Assembly (NCBI GenBank): GCA_002742935.1
Contig: PDON01000060.1
Location: 70,178-134,177 of the forward strand
DNA length: 64,000 nucleotides
Source of the DNA: Candidatus Cloacimonadota bacterium
GTDB lineage: Bacteria; UBA4055
Direction: 5' to 3'
Position numbers and translations under genes: made by a program. Shown here in pieces: positions 16,833 to 53,439 of the stretch (position 1 is the stretch's first letter; each line of letters opens with the position of its first letter). Below the pieces are notes generated by a model, which did no database searches, was not told where the DNA came from, and saw only the letters and a program-made list of their open reading frames with translations.

Positions 16833-17200
16833 TATCTTTCCCTTTTCTATTAAGTGAAAACAATATAAATAATTAAAAAGAGGGAATCTATCATTAATTT
16901 AAAAAAGTTTGGATAAAATTTATAGAGCAAAAAATACCCCCTTTTAAATTAAATTAGAAATAGCATATCCAAAATATTTTTGAGAAAAACCTGATTAAAA
17001 AGATATAGATATAACTTTATTATTGGCATAAGGCAATAAATTTTATATTTTATATTTATGTTTTACATAGTACTTATTTTAAAGGAGTATTTATGGGAAG
17101 TAAACCTGCAGGTTGTAGTAGACCTGATAGCGGACCTTTGAAAATAGAGTCTGCTGTAAAAAATAATCAATCATTACCAAACCCAGAAAAGGAGATTAAA

Positions 17201-17809
17201 ATGATTAGAGTAGGAAAAGAAGCTCCTGACTTTAAAGCTCCAGCTTTCCATAACGGAGAGTTTACGGAAGTTAAGTTGTCAGATTATAAAGGAAAATGGG
17301 TAGTACTTTGTTTCTATCCGGGAGATTTCACATTTGTTTGAGCTACAGAAGTGTCTGCAGTTGCAGCTCGTTACAAAGATTTCCAAGACCTTGGAGTTGA
17401 AGTTCTTTCAATAAGTGTTGACAGTATGTTTGTTCACAAAGTATGGAACGATAAAGAACTATCAAAAATGGTAGGTAGCGGAATTCCATTCCCTATGCTT
17501 TCTGACGGTGGTGGTAAAATTGGTGAAATTTATGGTGTTTATGATGAAGGTATAGGAGTAAACACTAGAGGAAGATTCCTTATTGACCCTGATGGTATTG
17601 TTCAAGGATTTGAGGTATTAACTCCTCCAGTTGGAAGAAATGTAGAGGAAACTCTTAGACAACTTAAAGCTTTCCAACATGTTAGAAAAGCAGGTGGAGC
17701 AGAAGCAACTCCTTCAGGATGGAAACCTGGCAAGAAAACATTAAAACCTGGTGTAAACCTAGTTGGTAAAGTTTGGGAAGAGTGGAAAACTGAAGAAGCT
17801 TTTGACTAA
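17201..17809 (+). CDS. selenocysteine-containing peroxiredoxin (AhpC/Prx family); in-frame TGA at 17339-17341 encodes Sec at the peroxidatic-Cys position ([13 protein letters not shown])
   Basis: Two adjacent same-frame ORFs (ends 17341, resumes 17342) together form a full-length Prx; TGA aligns with the conserved FTFVCPTE cysteine; GGAG RBS before ATG 17201 (alternative upstream ATG 17093 also has an RBS). Confidence 0.8.
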
Positions 17810-17822
17810 AATATCCAAAAAT

Positions 17823-17861
17823 CTAAAAAAAAAGGTCTCTAAAATTAGAGACCTTTTTTTA
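17823..17861. terminator. bidirectional rho-independent terminator between the Prx gene (+) and lpdA (-)
   Basis: A9 run, 8-bp stem AGGTCTCT / AGAGACCT, then T7. Confidence 0.7.
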
Positions 17862-17888
17862 TAATATATACTTATATAAAGTTGCATC

Positions 17889-19241
17889 CTATTTATGGAT
17901 AGGAGAATCAATAGCATCAAACCCCGCTTCCATAAACACCTCGGATATTGTAGGATGAGCATGAACAGTATTTGCAATATCATAAACAGTTGATTCAAGC
18001 TGCATATAAGCTGAGGCTTCCGATATCATATCTGTGGCATTGTGAGAGATTATTTGAACACCAAGTACCTCGCCATATTTCTTATCGGAGATAATTCTTA
18101 TAGCACCATCACTGGTTCCCTCTGTAAGAGCTTTTCCGTTTGCAGCTAAAGAGAACTCATTAATCTTATAATCAAGATTAAGATCTTTAACCTGCTGTTC
18201 AGTTTTACCAATTTGAGCCATTTCAGGAGTTGTATACATATTCATAGGATACTTTTCCATATTTAGCTCTTCATTAACACCATTTATACGATTAACAACA
18301 AAAAGTCCTTGAGCAGAAGCTATGTGAGCATAATAACTCTTACCATTCATATCTCCAATTGCATATATAGAATCATAAGGAGTTTTACAGTTCTCATCTG
18401 TTGAGATAAAATCATCCTCTACCTTAAGATTTATAGAAGATTTAGGAATAATAGCTTCTCTCCTCTGGGTGTTTAAAACCATATCACAACTTACAGTCTT
18501 ATCACCTATAACTAAAGAGTTATCTTCATACCTAATTGTAGAAAGATCTTTGTGATAGATAAGCTCAATTTTATCTTTCTTTAATACTTTTAACATAAAT
18601 GATGAAAGAAATTCATCAGCTCTTGGCATTATCTTATCTGCAGGAGCTACTAAAGTTACAGTTTTACCTATATGTCTAAAGAGTTGAGCCATCTCAATAG
18701 CAAGAGGAGTCTCTCCAAATACAACTATATTTTCAGGAATATCATCTTTTCCAAAAAGATCCTTAATCTCTACAACAACATCTTTAGGGATATTTTCAGG
18801 AACGGGCTTAGGAGAAGCTCCTGTTGCCAAAATTATATTCTTAGATTCAATTGTTCTATTGTTTACACTAACCTTATGCTCATCTAAAATTTCAGCTTCA
18901 CCTGTTATTATCTCAACATTATTTTTTTTCAGAAGAAACCCAATTCCGGTAGTAAGCTTTTTAACAATACCTGAAGCTCTCTTAGCTGCTTTTGCCCAAT
19001 CAAATCCTACACTCTTTTTATCAATACCCGTAATACCAAACTTCTTAGAATCATCTTTTATTCTTTTAAAAAGTTTTGCACTCTCAAGCATTGATTTTGA
19101 GGGTATACACCCCCAATTTAAGCACATACCACCAACATTCTCTTTTTCAATAATTGCAGTTTTTAAACCTAATTGTCCGGCTCTAATAGCGGATACATAT
19201 CCGGCAGGTCCTGCACCAATAATTACTATATCATAATCCAT
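17889..19241 (-). CDS. lpdA: dihydrolipoyl dehydrogenase (E3 component)
   Basis: GAGPAGY FAD motif, redox-active GGMCLNWGCIPSK disulfide motif, HAHPT C-terminal motif. Confidence 0.9.
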   Translation of the reverse strand: MDYDIVIIGAGPAGYVSAIRAGQLGLKTAIIEKENVGGMCLNWGCIPSKSMLESAKLFKRIKDDSKKFGITGIDKKSVGFDWAKAAKRASGIVKKLTTGIGFLLKKNNVEIITGEAEILDEHKVSVNNRTIESKNIILATGASPKPVPENIPKDVVVEIKDLFGKDDIPENIVVFGETPLAIEMAQLFRHIGKTVTLVAPADKIMPRADEFLSSFMLKVLKKDKIELIYHKDLSTIRYEDNSLVIGDKTVSCDMVLNTQRREAIIPKSSINLKVEDDFISTDENCKTPYDSIYAIGDMNGKSYYAHIASAQGLFVVNRINGVNEELNMEKYPMNMYTTPEMAQIGKTEQQVKDLNLDYKINEFSLAANGKALTEGTSDGAIRIISDKKYGEVLGVQIISHNATDMISEASAYMQLESTVYDIANTVHAHPTISEVFMEAGFDAIDSPIHK

Positions 19242-19259: not shown

Positions 19260-20552
19260 TTAATCCATTATTAAAGCTACAGGAGATCCAAGATATTCCA
19301 TTATCTGATTTAGAAATCTTGTTACATCTCCACCATCAACAATTCTATGATCTACAGAAAGTGATAGCGGTAGTACAGAACCAACCTTCATCTCATCATC
19401 CTTAACAACAGGTTTCTTCAGTAGTTTTCCCACTCCCAGAATACCGGCTTGAGGATAGTTAATTACCGGAACAGCATGGATTCCACCAATGGCACCATAG
19501 TTTGTTATAGTGAAAGTTCCATCTGCCATATCCTCCATAGTAAGCTTCTTATCTCTAGATTTTTCAGCAAGTTCCATAACTTTTTGAGCAAGTTCAAAGA
19601 TAGAAAGTTTATCAACATCCTTTATAACCGGAACTACAAGCCCGTGCTCAGTATCTACTGCTATACCTATGTTGTAGTAGTTTTTATACATCATCTGACC
19701 CTTTTCAAGATCCATACTGCTATTTAAAGATCTAAACTTTTTTAGAGAAAGAGCGGTAGCTTTTAAGATAAAAGGCATATATGAAAGCTTTACACCTTTC
19801 TCTTTAAACTTCTCTTTAAACTGAGTTCTTACAGCTATAAGATCACTTATCTCAACCTCATCAAATACTGTCATATGAGCAGCTTTATGCTTTGATTCCA
19901 CCATATTTTTAGCAATGGCTTTTCTGATTTGAGTAAGTGGCTCAATATCAACTAGATTACCGGTAGGTTGCGAAGCAGTAGAAGTTTGAACACTTATTTG
20001 AGGAGATGAAGATCCATTTTTAGAAAACTCTAAAATATCCTTCTTTGTTACCCTTCCCATTGGTCCTGAGCCTTTAACCTCATTTATATCTATATGAAGA
20101 TCTTTTGCATAAGCCCTCGCAACAGGAGTTGCCAAACTTTTTCTTCTAACATCTTTTTTCTTATCAACTTCACCTTCCGGTGCCCCTTCATCACTTGCAG
20201 GAAGATATGCTCCACTACCGGCAACCTCTAGAGTTCCAACAACGCCTGCAGCTTCACCCTCATCAATAGGTTCTGTTGTAGTTCCTGATTCTTCAGAAGC
20301 TTCAGACTCTTCACCCTCTACCTCAATCTCAACAAGAGCATCACCAACATTAATGGTTTCACCCTCTTTACCAAAAACTTTTGCAATAACACCATTTTTA
20401 GGTGACGGTATATCTGTAGCTACCTTATCGGTCTCCATATTACAAAGAGGATCACCTACTTCAACTTTTTGACCTTTTTTGACAAACCATTGATTGATTG
20501 TACCTTCATCTAAACCTTCACCAATATCTGGAAATTTAAATATATATCTCAT
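19260..20552 (-). CDS. dihydrolipoamide acyltransferase (E2) of a 2-oxoacid dehydrogenase complex
   Basis: Lipoyl domain METDKV, Ala/Pro/Glu-rich linker, E3-binding domain, catalytic DHRIVDG motif. Confidence 0.9.
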   Translation of the reverse strand: MRYIFKFPDIGEGLDEGTINQWFVKKGQKVEVGDPLCNMETDKVATDIPSPKNGVIAKVFGKEGETINVGDALVEIEVEGEESEASEESGTTTEPIDEGEAAGVVGTLEVAGSGAYLPASDEGAPEGEVDKKKDVRRKSLATPVARAYAKDLHIDINEVKGSGPMGRVTKKDILEFSKNGSSSPQISVQTSTASQPTGNLVDIEPLTQIRKAIAKNMVESKHKAAHMTVFDEVEISDLIAVRTQFKEKFKEKGVKLSYMPFILKATALSLKKFRSLNSSMDLEKGQMMYKNYYNIGIAVDTEHGLVVPVIKDVDKLSIFELAQKVMELAEKSRDKKLTMEDMADGTFTITNYGAIGGIHAVPVINYPQAGILGVGKLLKKPVVKDDEMKVGSVLPLSLSVDHRIVDGGDVTRFLNQIMEYLGSPVALIMD

Positions 20553-21529
20553 TAGAACCTCACCGTTTTTTCAATTTCATAAAAGATCTTATCAGGAGTT
20601 TGCATATAGAAGTGTTCACCCTGTGGAAGAGGTGTAATCACATCAAATGCTGAAACCCTCTTAGGTGGAGCTTCTAGGTAAAGGAAAGCTTCCTCGTTCA
20701 CTATAGAGATAAGCTCAGCTCCGGTACCATATGTGGTATTATCCTCTGTAACAACAACAACTCTACCAGTCTTTTTAACAGATTCAACAATTGTCTCTTT
20801 ATCAATTGGGTAGATTGATCTAAGATCTATAAGTTCGGCAGAGATACCCGCTTCTTTAGCCATAACTAAGGCTTTCTGCACCTCTCTAATCATAGCTCCA
20901 AAAGCTATTACGGTAACATCATCACCTTTGGTTAATACTTTTGCCTTACCTAGAGGGATATTGTACTTCTCTTCCGGAACCTCTTGCTTGATTGCTCTAT
21001 ATATACGCTTTGGTTCAAAAAACATAACAGGATCGTCAGATTCTATTGCTGAAATAAGCATCCCTTTTGCATCGTATGGAGTAGAAGGTACAATAACCTT
21101 TAATCCCGGAATGTGACCAAATATTGCTTCCATACTTTCACTATGATGCTCAAGAGCATTAATACCACCGCCGTAAGGCATACGGATAACCATACCCATT
21201 TTAAATTGACCTCTAGATCTATTGTGCATTCTTGCAACATGACAAATAATTTGGTTAAATGCAGGATAAACAAATCCTGAAAACTGCATCTCAATAACAG
21301 GTTTAAGACCGGCAGCAGCCATACCAACAGCTGTACCAACAATACCGGACTCTGCTAAAGGAGAATCCCAAACTCTCTTTACTCCATACTTTTTTTGAAG
21401 GCCTTCGGTTACACGAAAAACACCACCCTCAACACCAACATCTTCACCAAATACCACAATATCTTTATCTTCAGCCATCTTGACATCAATCGCATCAGTG
21501 ATAGCATTTACCATATTCATAACTTTCAT
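20552..21529 (-). CDS. 2-oxoacid dehydrogenase E1 component beta subunit (transketolase-like)
   Basis: 325 aa, family-typical length and motifs; start overlaps the E2 stop by 1 nt. Confidence 0.85.
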   Translation of the reverse strand: MKVMNMVNAITDAIDVKMAEDKDIVVFGEDVGVEGGVFRVTEGLQKKYGVKRVWDSPLAESGIVGTAVGMAAAGLKPVIEMQFSGFVYPAFNQIICHVARMHNRSRGQFKMGMVIRMPYGGGINALEHHSESMEAIFGHIPGLKVIVPSTPYDAKGMLISAIESDDPVMFFEPKRIYRAIKQEVPEEKYNIPLGKAKVLTKGDDVTVIAFGAMIREVQKALVMAKEAGISAELIDLRSIYPIDKETIVESVKKTGRVVVVTEDNTTYGTGAELISIVNEEAFLYLEAPPKRVSAFDVITPLPQGEHFYMQTPDKIFYEIEKTVRF

Positions 21530-21579
21530 ATATTAATCCACTTTCAATTAAACTTAAAATTTACGGTTTCGAGATAAAT

Positions 21580-22695
21580 CTATTTTTTACCTCTGGATTC
21601 TCTCCATTTGAGAAATTTTTCATACTCAGCTTTCTGATCTAAGATATTTTGAGGAATATCTGTGAAGATGTATTTGAAAACATCGTCAAAATTGCATCCC
21701 TTATCCTTTTCAGCTTCACGAAAGATTCTATCAACCTCTTTCTTGTACTGAGCATTAATCTCCTCCTCTTTCTCATCTGACCATAAACCTTTATCAATCA
21801 AATAAGCTTTCAGCCTTTTTACAGGATCCTTCTCTTCCCACTCGCTCTCCTCCTCTTTTGTCCTGTACTTTGTAGGATCATCGGATGTAGTGTGAGGACC
21901 TTTCCTATAAGTCAAAGCTTCAATCAAAATAGGACCTTCACCCTTTAGAGAAGCCTCTTTAGCTTCATCTATAGCTTTATACATTGCAAAAAAATCGTTA
22001 CCATCAACTTTGATACCTTTTATTCCATAAGCCTCTGACTTCACAGCTATATTTTTTGAAGCTGTTTGAACACTGAATGGAACAGATATAGCATATTGAT
22101 TATTCTGAACAATGAAGATAACAGGAGCTTTCCATACTCCGGCAAAATTTAGAGCTTCATGAAAATCTCCCTCGGAAGTTCCACCATCCCCAACAAAAGC
22201 GTAGACTAAATTTTTCTCATCCTTATACTGCATAGCATAGCCTAAGCCCGCTGCATGAACAAGTTGAGACGCAATAGGGACAGATATAGGAAGAACCCTA
22301 TTTGCACCCTTAAACCTCGAACCCTCTTCATTACCCATATAGTATAGGAAGATCTCTTTTAAAGAAACACCTTTGGAAAGATAAACACCGAGCTCTCTAA
22401 AAGCAGGTACTAACCAATCTTCATTAGTAATATGAGCGGAAGTTGCAGAGTGGATACCTTCTTGACCATAATTTGGCGGATAGGTGTAGATTCTACCTTG
22501 CCTTTGGTAAGAAACTATCATAAGGTCAGCCATTCTCTCAAATAACATATCTTTGTAGGCTTTTAATACAACCTCATCATCAACCTTTGGGAAAAACTCC
22601 TCATTTATAACCTTACCATCGTTATCCATAACTTGGAAAAGGGCATCTTCAATTGGTTTGTATTTTTCAAATACACTATTCATTAATAACCTCAT
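21580..22695 (-). CDS. 2-oxoacid dehydrogenase E1 component alpha subunit (TPP-dependent)
   Basis: GDG(x)25-30N TPP-binding motif (VGDGGTSEGDFHEALNFAGVWKAPVIFIVQNNQYAIS). Confidence 0.85.
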   Translation of the reverse strand: MRLLMNSVFEKYKPIEDALFQVMDNDGKVINEEFFPKVDDEVVLKAYKDMLFERMADLMIVSYQRQGRIYTYPPNYGQEGIHSATSAHITNEDWLVPAFRELGVYLSKGVSLKEIFLYYMGNEEGSRFKGANRVLPISVPIASQLVHAAGLGYAMQYKDEKNLVYAFVGDGGTSEGDFHEALNFAGVWKAPVIFIVQNNQYAISVPFSVQTASKNIAVKSEAYGIKGIKVDGNDFFAMYKAIDEAKEASLKGEGPILIEALTYRKGPHTTSDDPTKYRTKEEESEWEEKDPVKRLKAYLIDKGLWSDEKEEEINAQYKKEVDRIFREAEKDKGCNFDDVFKYIFTDIPQNILDQKAEYEKFLKWRESRGKK

Positions 22696-31548: not shown

Positions 31549-33081
31549 CTATCTAAACTTTTCCCATTCAAAACTACTTATATTCTTCTTCTCTTCATCA
31601 AAGTTTATTCCCACTAAATAGATATCGCTCTCTTCGCTAAGAAACTTCTCATAATATCTATTCTCTTTAATTTGGGAGATAGCATTTTCATTACCAACTT
31701 TAAACTCAAAAATGTATCTGTGGTTGTTTACAAGCAAACTCATATCCAACCTTCCCATATTTGTACTCTCCTCTACACTTATAGGAAACCCAAGAGAAGC
31801 GAGATAGGAGTAGATTACACTAGAATAAAAACCTTCATAAATATTAATGTTGTTCTTAACATAGTTTTGGTAAGGAAGAGAAGCAAATAATGAGATTAAG
31901 CTTGATTTAAAATCTTCCAATTTTGCATCAAATAGAGAGTATAGAGTTTTATTTTTATTAACCTGAGTATTGGCTACATTCAAAAGCATCATTTTCAAAA
32001 CAGATCTATTTAGACTTTGCTTAATCTCTTTATTTGGCATTTTTAGACTATATAGAATTTCATCAGCAGGGTTTATATATCTTTTTTTAACAGTTAGATA
32101 TCCACTCTGAAAAAGTAGAGCTTCTAAATTGATATTTTCAATTTCAAAAGAGTTTAAAATCTCTTCCCCAACAACTATATTTTCGAGGTTTGGAAGATAG
32201 TAGTTATTCTTTTTGATAAGATCTATTAAAAATGAAGGGTTCCCTGTCTCAAACCAATAGTTTTTATAAGTTAAATTTCCTCTTATAAAGAGTAGAATAT
32301 CAAAAGGGTTATAAACCTTATCTTTTAAAAAGTAGTATCCATTGTACCACTCTTTTAACTTTTCTAAATCAACACCTTGTAATAACGGTTTAAAAGCTGT
32401 TTCTATATCGCTATGGGTGTAACCACAGATATTACCAAAATTATTATTTAAAGTTATATCCTCAAGATTGTTTAATCCTGAAAAAATAGAAACTTTTGAA
32501 AACTTACTTACTCCGGTTAAGAATACAAACTTGAGGTATTTATCCGACCTTTTTAATATTTCATAAAAAGCTTTTAAGCTCTTCTTTGCATATTCTCTCA
32601 TTACTGGTTCTGTAATATTATCTAAGATAGGCTTATCATACTCATCAACCAAAACAACAACTTTTTGGTTATATTTTTCATAGGTTTTTTGAATCAGTTC
32701 TGATAGTTTGTTGGGAATGTCTAAATTATCATCAACATTTACCTTTAGAGCTTCAATATTTTTTTTTAAAATATAGTTAAAAACTCCATCTATACCCTCC
32801 TTTGTTGAAAGATTACCTGCAAAACTGATATGTATTACAGGAAACTTTTGACTAAAATCGTATCTTTTTTCAATATATAGACCCTTAAAATACTCTTTTT
32901 TACCTTCAAAAATAGACTTTAAAGTATCTAAAAATAGAGATTTCCCAAATCTTCTAGGACGAGAAAGAAATACATATTTATATGAATTTATCAGTTCCCA
33001 AGCCTCTTTGGTTTTATCGACATAGATATAATTATCCTCTCTAATTTCACTAAATGTTTGTATTCCAATTGGTAGCTTCAT
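31549..33081 (-). CDS. AAA-ATPase-like N-terminal domain plus PD-(D/E)XK nuclease-like C-terminal domain protein (paralog 1 of 3)
   Basis: N-terminal YVDKT...LSRPRRFGKSL motif shared with the 49457 and 51332 genes; C-terminal D...E.K nuclease-like motif (LDMSLL...IFEFK). Confidence 0.7.
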   Translation of the reverse strand: MKLPIGIQTFSEIREDNYIYVDKTKEAWELINSYKYVFLSRPRRFGKSLFLDTLKSIFEGKKEYFKGLYIEKRYDFSQKFPVIHISFAGNLSTKEGIDGVFNYILKKNIEALKVNVDDNLDIPNKLSELIQKTYEKYNQKVVVLVDEYDKPILDNITEPVMREYAKKSLKAFYEILKRSDKYLKFVFLTGVSKFSKVSIFSGLNNLEDITLNNNFGNICGYTHSDIETAFKPLLQGVDLEKLKEWYNGYYFLKDKVYNPFDILLFIRGNLTYKNYWFETGNPSFLIDLIKKNNYYLPNLENIVVGEEILNSFEIENINLEALLFQSGYLTVKKRYINPADEILYSLKMPNKEIKQSLNRSVLKMMLLNVANTQVNKNKTLYSLFDAKLEDFKSSLISLFASLPYQNYVKNNINIYEGFYSSVIYSYLASLGFPISVEESTNMGRLDMSLLVNNHRYIFEFKVGNENAISQIKENRYYEKFLSEESDIYLVGINFDEEKKNISSFEWEKFR

Positions 33082-41554: not shown

Positions 41555-42650
41555 ATGGAAGATATTAAATTACTAATACCTGATCTGGTTGAGAGATTTA
41601 ATAATCTCAGGAGGTCTCTTTGATCTTGAAAAGATCTCAAATGAGATAAAATCTTTGGAAGAGGATACAATGGAGGAGGGTTTCTATAATGATAGAAGCC
41701 ATTCTGAAAAAGTTTTTAATGAGCTAAATCGCAGAAAATATTGGATTGAAAAAATATCACTTCTTGATGAACTTAAGGAGGAGATTGATCTTATTCTTGA
41801 AATGATTGAGGAGGATCCTGATTCTATTGATAATGAACTTGAGACCGTTTTTAAAAAATTTAGTTCTACTTTAGATGAGGTTGAGCTTAAGTCTATGCTT
41901 AGTGGAGAGGAGGATAAGAGGAATGCTATCTTTACTATCCATGCAGGATCAGGTGGAACAGATGCTCAAGATTGGGCTCACATGCTCCTTAGACTATATA
42001 AAAGATTTTTTGATAAAATGGATTTTAAATATTCTGAAGTTGATTATTTGGCAGGAGATTTAATAGGGACTAAATCTGTTACATTTGAGGTTAGTGGTAA
42101 TTACCCTTACGGATTTCTAAAATCTGAACATGGAGTTCACAGGCTAATAAGACTTTCACCCTTTGATACTCAACATAAAAGACACACCTCTTTTGCTTCA
42201 ATTTCCGTTATGCCAGTTGCAGATGATGTTGAAATAGATCTTGATCTTAACGATTTAAGAATTGATACCTATAGAGCATCGGGAGCCGGTGGTCAACATG
42301 TAAATAAAACAGATTCTGCCGTTAGAATTACCCATATACCTACAAATACGGTTGTTCAATCCCAAGCCCAGAGATCTCAAGTTGTTAATAAGGAGTATGC
42401 TTTAAAAGTTTTAAAAGCAAAACTTTATCAAATGAAACTTGAGGAGGAAAAGAAGAAGTGGAGTGATATTGGAGGAGAGAAACTTGATATTTCTTGGGGT
42501 TCTCAAATAAGAACCTATACCTTTCACCCTTACAATATGGTAAAGGATCATAGAACAAACTATGACACTTCAAACACTCAATCCGTAATGGATGGAGAGA
42601 TAGAGGATTTTATAAAGGAGTACCTTCACAAGTTTGGTAAAAAGTATTAA
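41555..42650 (+). CDS. prfB: peptide chain release factor 2 with programmed +1 frameshift (frame 0: 41555-41620, ends CTT TGA; frame +1: 41622-42650)
   Basis: Internal SD-like AGGAGG, then TCT CTT TGA T; upstream frame encodes MEDIKLLIPDLVERFNNLRRSL; downstream frame has the SPF motif and GGQHVNKTDSAVR (GGQ motif). Confidence 0.85.
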
Positions 42651-49456: not shown

Positions 49457-51034
49457 TTACTCCTCTTTTAAAATCTCCTCTAAGCTAACCACCTCATGAT
49501 CCTTCACATTCCTATCCTTTTCATTAAAAGCTATACCCATACAGACAACTTTTTTCTTATCATTCAAGTATGGTTCATAATATTTTTTACTCTTTATCTG
49601 TTCAATAGCAGATTTTGCACTATTCATCTTAAATTCCATTACATAGATAAAATCTCCAACCTTTACAACAGCATCAATTACACCATTATTGGTCTTTTGC
49701 TCTACATCAATATTTATGCCCATAAATTTTAGAGCTAAATAGATAATTGTATGGTAATAACTTTCATACTTTCCGGTTCCGAGATTGTTTGGAATATCAG
49801 CAAAAATAGATCTAAGGGTTAATATAAAGGCTCTAATATCATTTTTTTCTAAAGAGGATACTAAATCCTGTATTTTTTGAGAATAATAGCCACTTTCAAT
49901 TCCTGCAAATTCAGCCCCTAAAAGCAGATAAAAAGATTGTTTTACCTCCATATTAGGATATCCTATTTTGTAAGATATAGAAAAATTATTTGGATCCATC
50001 ATCTTCTCTTTAATAGTGAGATAGCCTGTTTGAAAGAGAAGAACACTCATGTTTATATTTTCTAGATTATAGGAGTCTAAAGCTGATTCAGGAACATTTA
50101 TAAGATCATCATAATCTCTAACATTAATGCCCTTCTCTTTTATAAGCTTTATTAAAAAGGTCGCAGTTCCTGTTTTAAACCAAAAGTTTTTAAACTCTCT
50201 ATACCATAGAAGACTTAAAACAGAATACGGGTTATAGATAGAACTCTTAATATCCCAAGAGTAGCCATTATACCATAGTTTGACTACCTCTATTAGCCGT
50301 TTTCTATTAATACCATACTTCTCTTCAATAGTTTTTAGATAATCTCCATAATTATCTATAATCTCTTTTTCTGTATAGCCTGCTATCTCTGCATAATTTT
50401 CATCAATTGTAATATCTGTTAAATTATTGAGTTCACTAAAAAATGATACTCTACTAAACTTTGAGACCCCTGTTATAAAAAGTAGTTTTATATGATTATC
50501 TAAATCTTTAATTACAGAGTAAAATTGTTTCAATATCTCTCTATTTTTTTCAGCTGTTTCTAAATTGGTAATATAATCAATTATCGGCTTATCATACTCA
50601 TCTATTAAAATTGCAACAGGCTTTTCTTTACTTAGTTTTATTATTAGTTCTCTAAATTTTTCAGAAAATATTTCTGAGCTGTCAAAAATAACATTATTAT
50701 CTTTAGCAATACTATTAAGTTCTTTCTCTATAGCTTCTTTCAAATCTAAAGAGTTATAGGGTAAATTTGCAAAACTGATCTTTATAACCGGAAACTTTTC
50801 CTCAAAATTCCACTTATTATATATCCAAGTTCCTTCAAAAAGTTCTTTATTTCCATTAAAGAGTTCTTTCATTGTATTTACTAGGAGAGATTTCCCAAAT
50901 CTTCGTGGACGGGAAAGGAAGTAGTATTTTCCTGTTGAAATAAGTTTATTGATAGTTTTTGTTTTATCTACATAAACACAATTATCTCTTCTGAGTGTTG
51001 AGAGTTCTTGATATCCTAAGCCTAGTTTTTTCAT
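49457..51034 (-). CDS. AAA-ATPase-like plus PD-(D/E)XK domain protein (paralog 2)
   Basis: About 65% identity to the 51332 gene over the N-terminus; shared YVDKT / LSRPRRFGKSL motifs; C-terminal IDAVVK...IMEFK nuclease-like motif. Confidence 0.7.
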   Translation of the reverse strand: MKKLGLGYQELSTLRRDNCVYVDKTKTINKLISTGKYYFLSRPRRFGKSLLVNTMKELFNGNKELFEGTWIYNKWNFEEKFPVIKISFANLPYNSLDLKEAIEKELNSIAKDNNVIFDSSEIFSEKFRELIIKLSKEKPVAILIDEYDKPIIDYITNLETAEKNREILKQFYSVIKDLDNHIKLLFITGVSKFSRVSFFSELNNLTDITIDENYAEIAGYTEKEIIDNYGDYLKTIEEKYGINRKRLIEVVKLWYNGYSWDIKSSIYNPYSVLSLLWYREFKNFWFKTGTATFLIKLIKEKGINVRDYDDLINVPESALDSYNLENINMSVLLFQTGYLTIKEKMMDPNNFSISYKIGYPNMEVKQSFYLLLGAEFAGIESGYYSQKIQDLVSSLEKNDIRAFILTLRSIFADIPNNLGTGKYESYYHTIIYLALKFMGINIDVEQKTNNGVIDAVVKVGDFIYVMEFKMNSAKSAIEQIKSKKYYEPYLNDKKKVVCMGIAFNEKDRNVKDHEVVSLEEILKEE

Positions 51035-51331: not shown

Positions 51332-52903
51332 TTATAGTAATTCCATCTCTTCTACACTTGCTACTTCATAGCCTTTAACATTTCTATCATCTGAATCAAA
51401 AGCAACTCCAAGACAAATAATATCTCTTTCGTCATCCAAATATCGTTCATAATACTTTTTCTCTTTAATCTGTTTTAGAGCAGCCTTTGCATTACTCATC
51501 TTAAACTCCATTATATAAATATAATCTTTAGTTTTTACGACCGCATCAATTCGCCCATGATTGGTATTAACCTCCACATCAATCTGAACTCCTATAAACT
51601 TTAGAGCTAAATAAAGAACGGTATGGTAATAACTCTCTTTTTGATTGCTAGCAAGATTATTTGAAATATCTGCAAAAAGAACCCTAATACTTTTGATAAA
51701 ATCTTCAATTTTATTTTTTTTGAGAGCAATCATTAACCTATTAACCGTATCAGAATATTTCAAATTATGAAGTCCGGCAAATTCCGCTCCCAAGAAAAGG
51801 TAGAGAGAAGATCTTACTTCCATATTGGGATAACCCATTTGAAACGAAACAAACTCCTCATCCCTAATATATTCTTTAATGGTTAAATATCCGGTTTGAA
51901 ACAAAAGAACAGAGGTATCAATATTAGAAATTTCGTAAGAATCTAAAACGCTTCTAGAAATATTTATTTGATTATCATACTCTTTAACATCAATATCTTT
52001 TTCTTTAATTAGCTTGGTTAAAAATGTAGGAGTTCCGGATTTAAACCAAAAATTTTCAAATTCCAAAGAGTTAAAAAGATTTAAAACAGAATAAGGATTA
52101 TAAACAAAATTTTTAGCATCCCAAGAGTATCCATTGTACCAAAATTTTATTCTTTCTAATAATCTTTTTCTATCCCAATTATACTCTTCTTCGAGTTCAA
52201 TCAAATAATTTTCATAATTATCTATAATCTCCTCTTCTGTATATCCTGTAATATTAACATATTTTCTATTAATGGTAATATCTGTTAAATTATTAAGTTC
52301 TGAAAAAATTGAAACCCTACTAAATTTAGAAACTCCCGTGATAAACAAAAATCTAATATGAGCATCTAAATTTTTAAGGACAGAGTAGAAATTTTTCATA
52401 ATTTGTCTATTCTTTTCCGCTGTGTCTCGTGATTTTTCATCAATATAATCTATAATTGGTTTATCGTACTCATCTATCAAAATTGCAACAGGATTTTTTT
52501 TGCTAAGTTTTATTATTAGTTCTTGAAATTTTTCTTTTACAGTTATAGTTTCAAGCTTAACTTTGTGATTTTTTGCTATATCCTCTAGATTTTCTCGAAG
52601 AACAATATCTAAGCCCCTATTTGCATAATCTAAACTCGCCATACAAATCTTAATTATAGGAAATGTTTCAGCAAAATTATATTTATCCTCTATCCAAGTA
52701 TCTTTAAAAAGCTCTTTATTTCCTTGAAAAATTTCTTTAATAGTGTTTAGAAGTAAAGATTTTCCAAATCTTCTTGGGCGAGATAGGAAACAATAAGTTT
52801 CATTATTGATTAGTTCATAAATATACTCTGTTTTATCAACATAAACACAGTTTCTTTTTCTAAGCATTGATAACTCTTGAGTTCCAAGTCCAAGTTTTTT
52901 CAT
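51332..52903 (-). CDS. AAA-ATPase-like plus PD-(D/E)XK domain protein (paralog 3, tandem with paralog 2)
   Basis: As above. Confidence 0.7.
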   Translation of the reverse strand: MKKLGLGTQELSMLRKRNCVYVDKTEYIYELINNETYCFLSRPRRFGKSLLLNTIKEIFQGNKELFKDTWIEDKYNFAETFPIIKICMASLDYANRGLDIVLRENLEDIAKNHKVKLETITVKEKFQELIIKLSKKNPVAILIDEYDKPIIDYIDEKSRDTAEKNRQIMKNFYSVLKNLDAHIRFLFITGVSKFSRVSIFSELNNLTDITINRKYVNITGYTEEEIIDNYENYLIELEEEYNWDRKRLLERIKFWYNGYSWDAKNFVYNPYSVLNLFNSLEFENFWFKSGTPTFLTKLIKEKDIDVKEYDNQINISRSVLDSYEISNIDTSVLLFQTGYLTIKEYIRDEEFVSFQMGYPNMEVRSSLYLFLGAEFAGLHNLKYSDTVNRLMIALKKNKIEDFIKSIRVLFADISNNLASNQKESYYHTVLYLALKFIGVQIDVEVNTNHGRIDAVVKTKDYIYIMEFKMSNAKAALKQIKEKKYYERYLDDERDIICLGVAFDSDDRNVKGYEVASVEEMELL

Positions 52904-53088: not shown

Positions 53089-53439
53089 CTACATATTAAA
53101 TACAACAACTCCAATTACAATTATAAGTGTACTTAACAACTGATTTTTAGAAAAACTCTCTTTTAAAATAAAATAGGATAAAAAATTTACCACTACAAAG
53201 GTAAATGGTAAAAATATCACTCCATACTTTACATCTAAATATCTATAAACATATAAATTTAATAAAGTAACCACTAGCATAAGGAAATATCCTAGTATTG
53301 TAAACTTATTTAGATATATTGAAAGTTTTGAGTTTTGTTTGCTACTTCCTTTTTTTAGAAGTAGTTGGGCAAAACCTGTAAGCAAAACTCCAAGATAGCC
53401 TAAAATAATTAACATAAAATGAAAATTTGACCCAATCAT
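53089..53439 (-). CDS. small 4-TM SMR/EamA-like membrane protein, ArnE/ArnF-like flippase subunit
   Basis: 116 aa, 4 TM; C-terminal half resembles ArnE (GVIFLPFTFVVVNFLSYFILKESFS vs [27 protein letters not shown]); 4-nt overlap with the partner gene. Confidence 0.55.
   Translation of the reverse strand: MIGSNFHFMLIILGYLGVLLTGFAQLLLKKGSSKQNSKLSIYLNKFTILGYFLMLVVTLLNLYVYRYLDVKYGVIFLPFTFVVVNFLSYFILKESFSKNQLLSTLIIVIGVVVFNM

Follow-up and report, generated by a model that had tools for sequence, protein, structure and literature searches.

The window, by which is meant the whole 64-kb stretch of Cloacimonadota DNA that was analysed, carries on its forward strand two open reading frames of the same phase at 17093-17341 (82 amino acids) and 17351-17809 (152 amino acids, with a GTG start), and all that parts them is a TGA at 17339-17341 and three codons. 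Read through this TGA, the pair gives a protein of 238 amino acids that ends at the TAA at 17807-17809, and the full-length frame (17093-17809, 238 codons including the candidate selenocysteine codon 83) is referred to here as prxU. In the read-through translation the TGA directly follows PGDFTFV and occupies the peroxidatic position of the P-x3-T-x2-C motif, which is residue 83 of the full-length protein and residue 47 in the numbering of a shorter form. A preliminary description of this DNA had noted two same-frame open reading frames parted only by a TGA and had placed that codon at the peroxidatic cysteine; both observations are borne out. A contig assembled independently from a different sequencing run (locus L001, Logan SRR6011893) has this TGA as well, which rules out sequencing error as its source. 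The prxU frames are the sole pair split by a sense-frame TGA in the 64-kb window, and also in 20 kb of flanking DNA, so the split is more than a chance arrangement.

Downstream of prxU a bidirectional intrinsic terminator (17827-17860, a stem of 15 bp between an A run and a T run) separates the gene from the convergent lpd, and weak terminator-like Rfam matches occur only at 17820-17865. The lpd gene (lipoamide dehydrogenase, 17889-19241) is followed by genes for the E2 and E1 components of a 2-oxoacid dehydrogenase complex (19260-22695). On the upstream side an AT-rich inverted repeat, TTATTG-N8-CAATAA, is seen by eye at 17020-17039, about 55-75 nt ahead of the long start of prxU, and might serve as the operator of a regulator that responds to peroxide. 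In two related loci of the Cys type, with cysteine in place of the TGA (L163:1084-1308 and L166:1083-1308), a gene for a Fur-family regulator (PF01475, possibly PerR) lies immediately downstream, which fits a peroxide-stress regulon; no Fur-family gene stands beside prxU in the window. Elsewhere in the window, three paralogous frames of 510-525 amino acids on the minus strand (31549-33081, 49457-51034 and 51332-52903) share the N-terminal sequences M-K-K-L-G-L-G-x-Q-E-L-S...Y-V-D-K-T and F-L-S-R-P-R-R-F-G-K-S-L and probably belong to a multi-copy ATPase/nuclease-like family.

PrxU family membership and conserved residues

The read-through protein scores 408.1 bits against the equivalog model NF040737 (peroxi_PrxU, cut-off 270) with C entered at residue 83 and 402.5 bits with X, and the match spans profile positions 2-232 of 233. 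An end-to-end score above the cut-off is thus combined with a TGA in the P-x3-T-x2-[UC] motif, where members of the family have TGA or Cys. The AhpC equivalog TIGR03137 gives 198 bits against a cut-off of 272, which is below threshold, and the C-terminal EVCP resolving cysteine is missing, so the protein does not belong with the typical 2-Cys Prx/AhpC enzymes. The Pfam domains found are AhpC-TSA and a 1-cysPrx_C tail, and homologues of about 238 amino acids are 60-72% identical. Peroxiredoxins with a T-x-x-U motif belong to those prokaryotic selenoprotein families that are listed as verified by experiment (PMC13188914, PMC9312934), and the founding case, from Eubacterium acidaminophilum, is a PrxU labelled with 75Se (Sohling et al. 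2001, cited in the same two papers).

The closest solved structures are those of typical 2-Cys peroxiredoxins, with human Prx2 matching at E = 8e-51 over residues 38-222. The EVCPAGW segment of human Prx2 aligns with EATPSGW, which places Thr206 (17708-17710) at the position of the C-terminal resolving cysteine and agrees with the earlier remark that this residue is absent. Another difference is Cys73 (codon 17309-17311, in the sequence VLCFYPGDF), which is invariant in the PrxU family and is located where typical Prx2 has a phenylalanine. Every residue that is invariant in the family is kept in the window protein on both sides of the TGA, and this intactness argues against a pseudogene.

Gene callers list the two frames apart, here and in many databases, which is the form the locus would have if it held two independent small genes of 82 and 152 amino acids. 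Such an arrangement would divide a thioredoxin-fold domain in its middle, exactly at the catalytic residue, and would require the second frame to start at a GTG that lies inside the downstream hairpin described below and lacks a Shine-Dalgarno sequence, whereas the full-length read fits one profile from end to end. Two separate genes can for practical purposes be dismissed, and the locus is treated in what follows as a single prxU gene.

The TGA codon in relatives and in this genome

Related loci were fetched from species-representative genomes (80 loci) and from metagenomes (80 loci), all with 65-75% identity to the window protein. The genome loci come from Desulfobacterota, Fibrobacterota, KSB1, Spirochaetota, Calditrichota and Clostridia, and further from Nitrospirota (Thermodesulfovibrio), Planctomycetota (Pirellulales), Anaerolineae and others. 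The codon at the Sec83 position is TGA in 160/160 of these loci (80/80 from genomes and 80/80 from metagenomes), and judged by this distribution the TGA is ancestral and not a mutation. A nonsense mutation specific to this lineage is ruled out by the same count.

At the protein level, the residue at this position among the best 120 protein clusters is given as Trp in 103, as Gly in one and as Cys in 14. One of the Trp-containing database proteins was traced to its DNA, where the codon is TGA, and the Trp and Gly entries are taken as gene-caller artefacts of translation tables 4 and 25 on the basis of that one checked case. With 104 TGA clusters against 14 Cys clusters among the top 120, the position is by its pattern of substitution a classical Sec/Cys pair. 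In public protein sets (clusters P0001-P0164) PrxU appears as fragments of 80-150 amino acids named peroxiredoxin or hypothetical protein, and other entries are full-length with Trp or Gly at the Sec codon, the callers having switched to tables 4 or 25. With PrxU genes split or mistranslated in this way, the selenoproteomes of uncultured anaerobes are under-counted.

The meaning of UGA in this genome can be read from the release factor 2 gene prfB (ATG 41555 to 42650), which has a programmed +1 frameshift site of the classical kind, AGG AGG TCT CTT TGA T, at 41609-41624. The short frame from ATG 41555 stops at AGG AGG TCT CTT TGA and the +1 frame continues (DLEKIS...); the list of open reading frames holds the downstream part of prfB only, beginning at a spurious TTG at 41589. 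The retention of a UGA frameshift site by prfB indicates that UGA is a true stop codon here. A search of the genes of the window for another sense-frame TGA found none, and in combination with the RF2 frameshift site this rules out a code 4/25 reassignment.

The use of TGA as a stop is nevertheless sparse, as none of the 57 open reading frames of at least 150 amino acids in 84 kb (the window and its flanks) ends in TGA, with TAA closing 31 and TAG 26, despite the TGA trinucleotide being as frequent as TAG. The sole TGA stop seen is in an ATGA overlap at 53436-53439. According to a 2026 survey, a tRNA-Trp(CCA) that is prone to UGA read-through and has an anticodon stem of 4 bp is prominent in Cloacimonadota (PMC13092985). 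Such a leaky tRNA-Trp could explain the avoidance of TGA stops in this DNA; a weaker possibility is that the lineage may avoid UGA stops genome-wide owing to leaky UGA decoding. If UGA is leaky, the competition of Sec insertion with termination would change.

These features bear directly on an alternative in which the UGA of prxU is read by a near-cognate or suppressor tRNA, for example tRNA-Trp(CCA), or is reassigned, so that residue 83 would be Trp or Gly. The absence of TGA ends among the 57 frames, the read-through-prone tRNA-Trp reported in the phylum (PMC13092985) and the W or G entered by automatic callers in homologues are all compatible with such decoding, but an enzyme with either residue at the peroxidatic position would be inactive, and Cys is the sole natural alternative found at this codon. 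Together with the RF2 gene and its UGA-dependent frameshift site, the lack of an in-frame TGA in any other gene and a conserved, covarying hairpin downstream of the UGA that would be left with no role make decoding as Trp or Gly very improbable and favour selenocysteine.

Across 84 kb, made up of the window and 10 kb of each flank, there is no tRNA gene, tRNA-Sec included, and selA, selB and selD are not recognisable either (from translations of the open reading frames and Pfam labels of the flank genes), so we infer the use of selenocysteine by this Cloacimonadota genome rather than reading it from a sel locus. A "Cloacimonetes type" tRNASec has been described at the level of the phylum (PMC5330540).

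The hairpin downstream of the UGA

Positions in the hairpin are numbered with the U of the UGA as +1. The relatives that bear the TGA have a 7-bp stem, formed by +14 to +20 with +25 to +31 and capped by a 4-nt loop, and RNAalifold predicts this stem unguided. In an alignment of 81 sequences 98.9% of the cells of the stem are paired and 106 cells are changed on both sides; 0/500 shuffles match its covariation values, and controls in which the 3' partner was slid pair at 40-67%. The double changes (for example UCU/GCA, UCA/GCU, UCG/GCC and UCC/GCG) occur at the wobble positions of Ser and Ala codons. Two loop sequences occur, AGUU (91 relatives) and GGUC (68), and no other is seen, so that RGUY describes 159/159 TGA relatives, and the first and last bases of the loop covary at 100%. 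Of six Cys-type homologues of nearly the same amino acid sequence, five retain just 2-4 pairs of the stem, and this loss in most of the Cys forms means that the hairpin goes with the UGA and not with the peptide sequence. The features by which a SECIS element is recognised are found together here: a stem-loop roughly 10-40 nt 3' to the codon with conserved apical G/U, compensatory changes and specificity to the UGA-bearing forms. The comparison yields a covariation-supported consensus for the PrxU SECIS, UCNGC-RGUY-GCN'GA at +16 to +29. Rfam searches at gathering thresholds on the whole window and in E-value mode on 17000-17900 gave no match to a SECIS family.

The SECIS of Escherichia coli fdhF, the sequence of which was confirmed against 5,419 E. 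coli genomes, has a minimal upper stem-loop UGCA-GGUC-UGCA with a bulged U17. The PrxU element resembles it in its small size, in its place directly behind the UGA and in a loop of 4 nt that exposes G-U, and the fdhF loop GGUC is identical to that of 68/159 PrxU relatives. The two differ in the placement of the loop G-U, which is at +22/+23 in PrxU and at +23/+24 in fdhF, and in the stem, which in the PrxU relatives is a continuous 7 bp without a bulge.

The window's own copy of the element is a predicted hairpin at 17351-17369 on the forward strand, defined by the minimum free energy structure of the 42 nt after the UGA and by the family covariation. Its core stem CUGC/GCAG (17355-17358 with 17363-17366) carries the loop AGUU (17359-17362) with G-U at +22/+23, and is extended by a bulged U (17354), a G17353-C17367 pair, a U.U mismatch and a G17351-C17369 pair. 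This copy has the same topology as the fdhF element, an upper stem of 4 bp being followed by a bulged U and G-C pairing; its loop is AGUU where fdhF has GGUC. Where the family has AVAEKY the window has AVAARY, and this replacement of Glu by Ala reduces the in-register stem to four pairs; at -2.3 kcal/mol compared with a mean of -8.9, it has the lowest stability among the 160 elements examined. Closer relatives sharing AARY were sought in a metagenome scan, which yielded nothing above about 75% identity. Folding of the single sequence around the TGA gives z-scores of about 0, which are not significant, and a minimum free energy structure that pairs the UGA itself. In a 105-nt free-mRNA context the probability of the core stem is 0.03, and it rises to 0.97, similar to the relatives, when everything 5' of +13 is left out of the fold to mimic an mRNA whose UGA is occupied by a ribosome.

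The preliminary description had pointed to a hairpin CTGC-AGTT-GCAG at 17355-17366, which is present, and had called it a weak SECIS candidate. The weakness stands, as this is a weakened variant, but the hairpin is not a generic one, being the core of a SECIS that is conserved and covaries across the family. From its sequence and that of its relatives the window SECIS is probably functional, though its weakness is the main internal caveat.

That weakness, the lowest stem stability among the 160 relatives, is also what would be expected of a relic, in which the Sec machinery has been lost and the UGA terminates translation, leaving a young pseudogene or a fragment of 82 amino acids only. The absence of sel genes and tRNA-Sec from the 84 kb points the same way. 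Against decay of this kind, the 152 codons after the TGA are intact with all invariant family residues kept, the SECIS still has its core and its AGUU loop, and three other TGA-bearing relatives (L021, L057 and L160) tolerate a mismatch of this type, Glu to Ala or Val. A lineage that gives up Sec will normally change to Cys at this codon, as seen in 14 clusters, and the phylum is known to have tRNASec (PMC5330540). A relic is on balance quite unlikely, and a functional selenocysteine codon is preferred.

A conserved SECIS is also compatible with SECIS/SelB recoding in which Cys rather than Sec is inserted by a cysteine-charged tRNASec-like tRNA. A tRNA of this kind has been proposed for some anaerobes. 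Nothing at prxU speaks for it directly. The protein on which the family was founded is a selenoprotein labelled with 75Se (Sohling et al. 2001, cited in PMC13188914 and PMC9312934), and the tRNASec type of the phylum is described as such (PMC5330540), so that insertion of Cys is considered highly unlikely.

The region 17093-17809 is thus very probably a single PrxU gene in which the UGA at 17339-17341 encodes the peroxidatic selenocysteine by means of SECIS and SelB. The proposal that a Sec-recoded AhpC/Prx protein is split here into two open reading frames is supported by the match to the PrxU equivalog, by the TGA in all 160 relatives, with Cys in a minority of homologues, and by the covariation of the SECIS.

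Start sites, catalytic cycle and known systems

The long form starts at ATG 17093 with the Shine-Dalgarno sequence AAGGAG (17082-17087) ahead of it. Seven or eight codons ahead of an invariant cysteine, an equivalent start preceded by a Shine-Dalgarno sequence is present in 151/160 loci. This cysteine, Cys8 in the window protein (codon 17114-17116), lies in the N-terminal motif G-C-S-R-P (17111-17125; consensus GCARPTGGPVGE) and is invariant in 99 long forms; the motif G-C-x-R-P is found in 156/160 loci, in 131 of them as GCARP. The motif of the arm as a whole reads M-x6-G-C-A-R-P-T-G-G-P-V-G-E, and its first and second codon positions are nearly invariant while the third positions have an entropy of about 1.9 bits, a freedom which indicates that the region is conserved as protein and not as RNA. 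The NF040737 profile includes the arm, which adds about 16 bits to the score.

A probable second start, internal to the frame at ATG 17201-17203 (Met37) and with a second AAGGAG at 17189-17194, would give the canonical form of 202 amino acids. At this internal codon 157/160 loci have ATG, and in 156/160 the coding sequence itself holds an SD-like AAGGAGG at -15 to -9. Glu codons at this internal site are GAG in 70% of cases compared with 39% in the rest of the gene, an enrichment for which the Fisher p of 4e-21 is inflated by the relatedness of the sequences. Cys-type members also carry the internal ATG and SD-like features. It had been noted that ATG 17201 and ATG 17093 each have a ribosome-binding site, and AAGGAG does precede both; the accompanying preference for ATG 17201 does not hold, since both starts with their Shine-Dalgarno sequences are conserved in the family, and the 36-residue extension that had seemed odd is instead a family hallmark, conserved, translated and with an invariant cysteine. 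The conservation of two initiation sites suggests that a long isoform bearing the arm and a short isoform may both be made. Purified E. acidaminophilum PrxU is reportedly a protein of 203 amino acids with Sec47, which fits use of the internal start in that organism, and Sec47 of the window protein in short-form numbering presumably corresponds to it. The published description of the 203-residue protein is not known to include a long form with the N-terminal Cys arm.

The AlphaFold (AF2) model of a Cys-form homologue (P0065) has a core with pLDDT above 90 and residues 7-36 of the arm below 50. The arm is predicted to be disordered, which is compatible with a flexible arm, the model giving no contact information.

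From established knowledge of bacterial systems we infer the following scheme for Sec insertion and the peroxiredoxin cycle. Once a ribosome has reached the UGA, the message beyond about +13 would fold into the hairpin 17351-17369, its AGUU loop exposing G-U, and the apical G-U would recruit SelB.GTP.Sec-tRNASec so that Sec is inserted in competition with RF2-dependent termination. The selenolate of Sec would reduce peroxide and be converted to selenenic acid, which would probably be resolved by a thiol, the best candidate being Cys8 on the flexible N-terminal arm and the alternative Cys73, either of which may stand in for the lost C-terminal resolving cysteine. Thioredoxin, to which the NCBIfam name and the literature point as the likely reductant, would reduce the resulting bond and regenerate PrxU. 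A more specific arrangement, possible but rather doubtful, is that the dual starts give a long form in which Cys8 acts as a tethered resolving thiol that forms a selenenylsulfide with Sec and a short form that acts as a '1-Sec' enzyme. If this were true, the N-terminal arm would replace the lost C-terminal resolving cysteine of the 2-Cys peroxiredoxins.

What was found is right, but it is nothing out of the ordinary: the gene, although unannotated, is a routine addition to a family of selenocysteine-containing peroxiredoxins that was established by experiment in 2001 and has a curated NCBIfam model. The novelty is low: PrxU is added to a Cloacimonadota genome and the understanding of Sec recoding is unchanged. 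Its main value lies in annotation, prxU being split in the source MAG. Beyond the routine are the family-wide dual start with an N-terminal cysteine, the unusually weak fdhF-like SECIS and the near-absence of TGA stops, and the N-terminal Cys arm and dual starts provide leads to the recycling of a Sec-peroxiredoxin that lacks the C-terminal resolving cysteine.

The PrxU of E. acidaminophilum (Peptoclostridium; Sohling et al. 2001, Biol Chem 382:979; NF040737) belongs to the same equivalog as the window protein, and the two share the T-x-x-U motif (FTFVU) and the lack of a C-terminal resolving cysteine. The window PrxU shares about 60-70% identity with other members, and it differs in its Cloacimonadota host and in a SECIS weakened by the Glu-to-Ala substitution, and the NCBIfam PrxU profile covers the long form with the N-terminal Cys arm. 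The typical 2-Cys peroxiredoxins (human Prx2 and bacterial AhpC) have the same predicted fold and the same context of the catalytic motif. Compared with these enzymes, the window protein would have Sec in place of the peroxidatic cysteine, and it has Thr in place of the C-terminal resolving cysteine, the additional invariant Cys73 and an N-terminal arm of 36 amino acids with Cys8.
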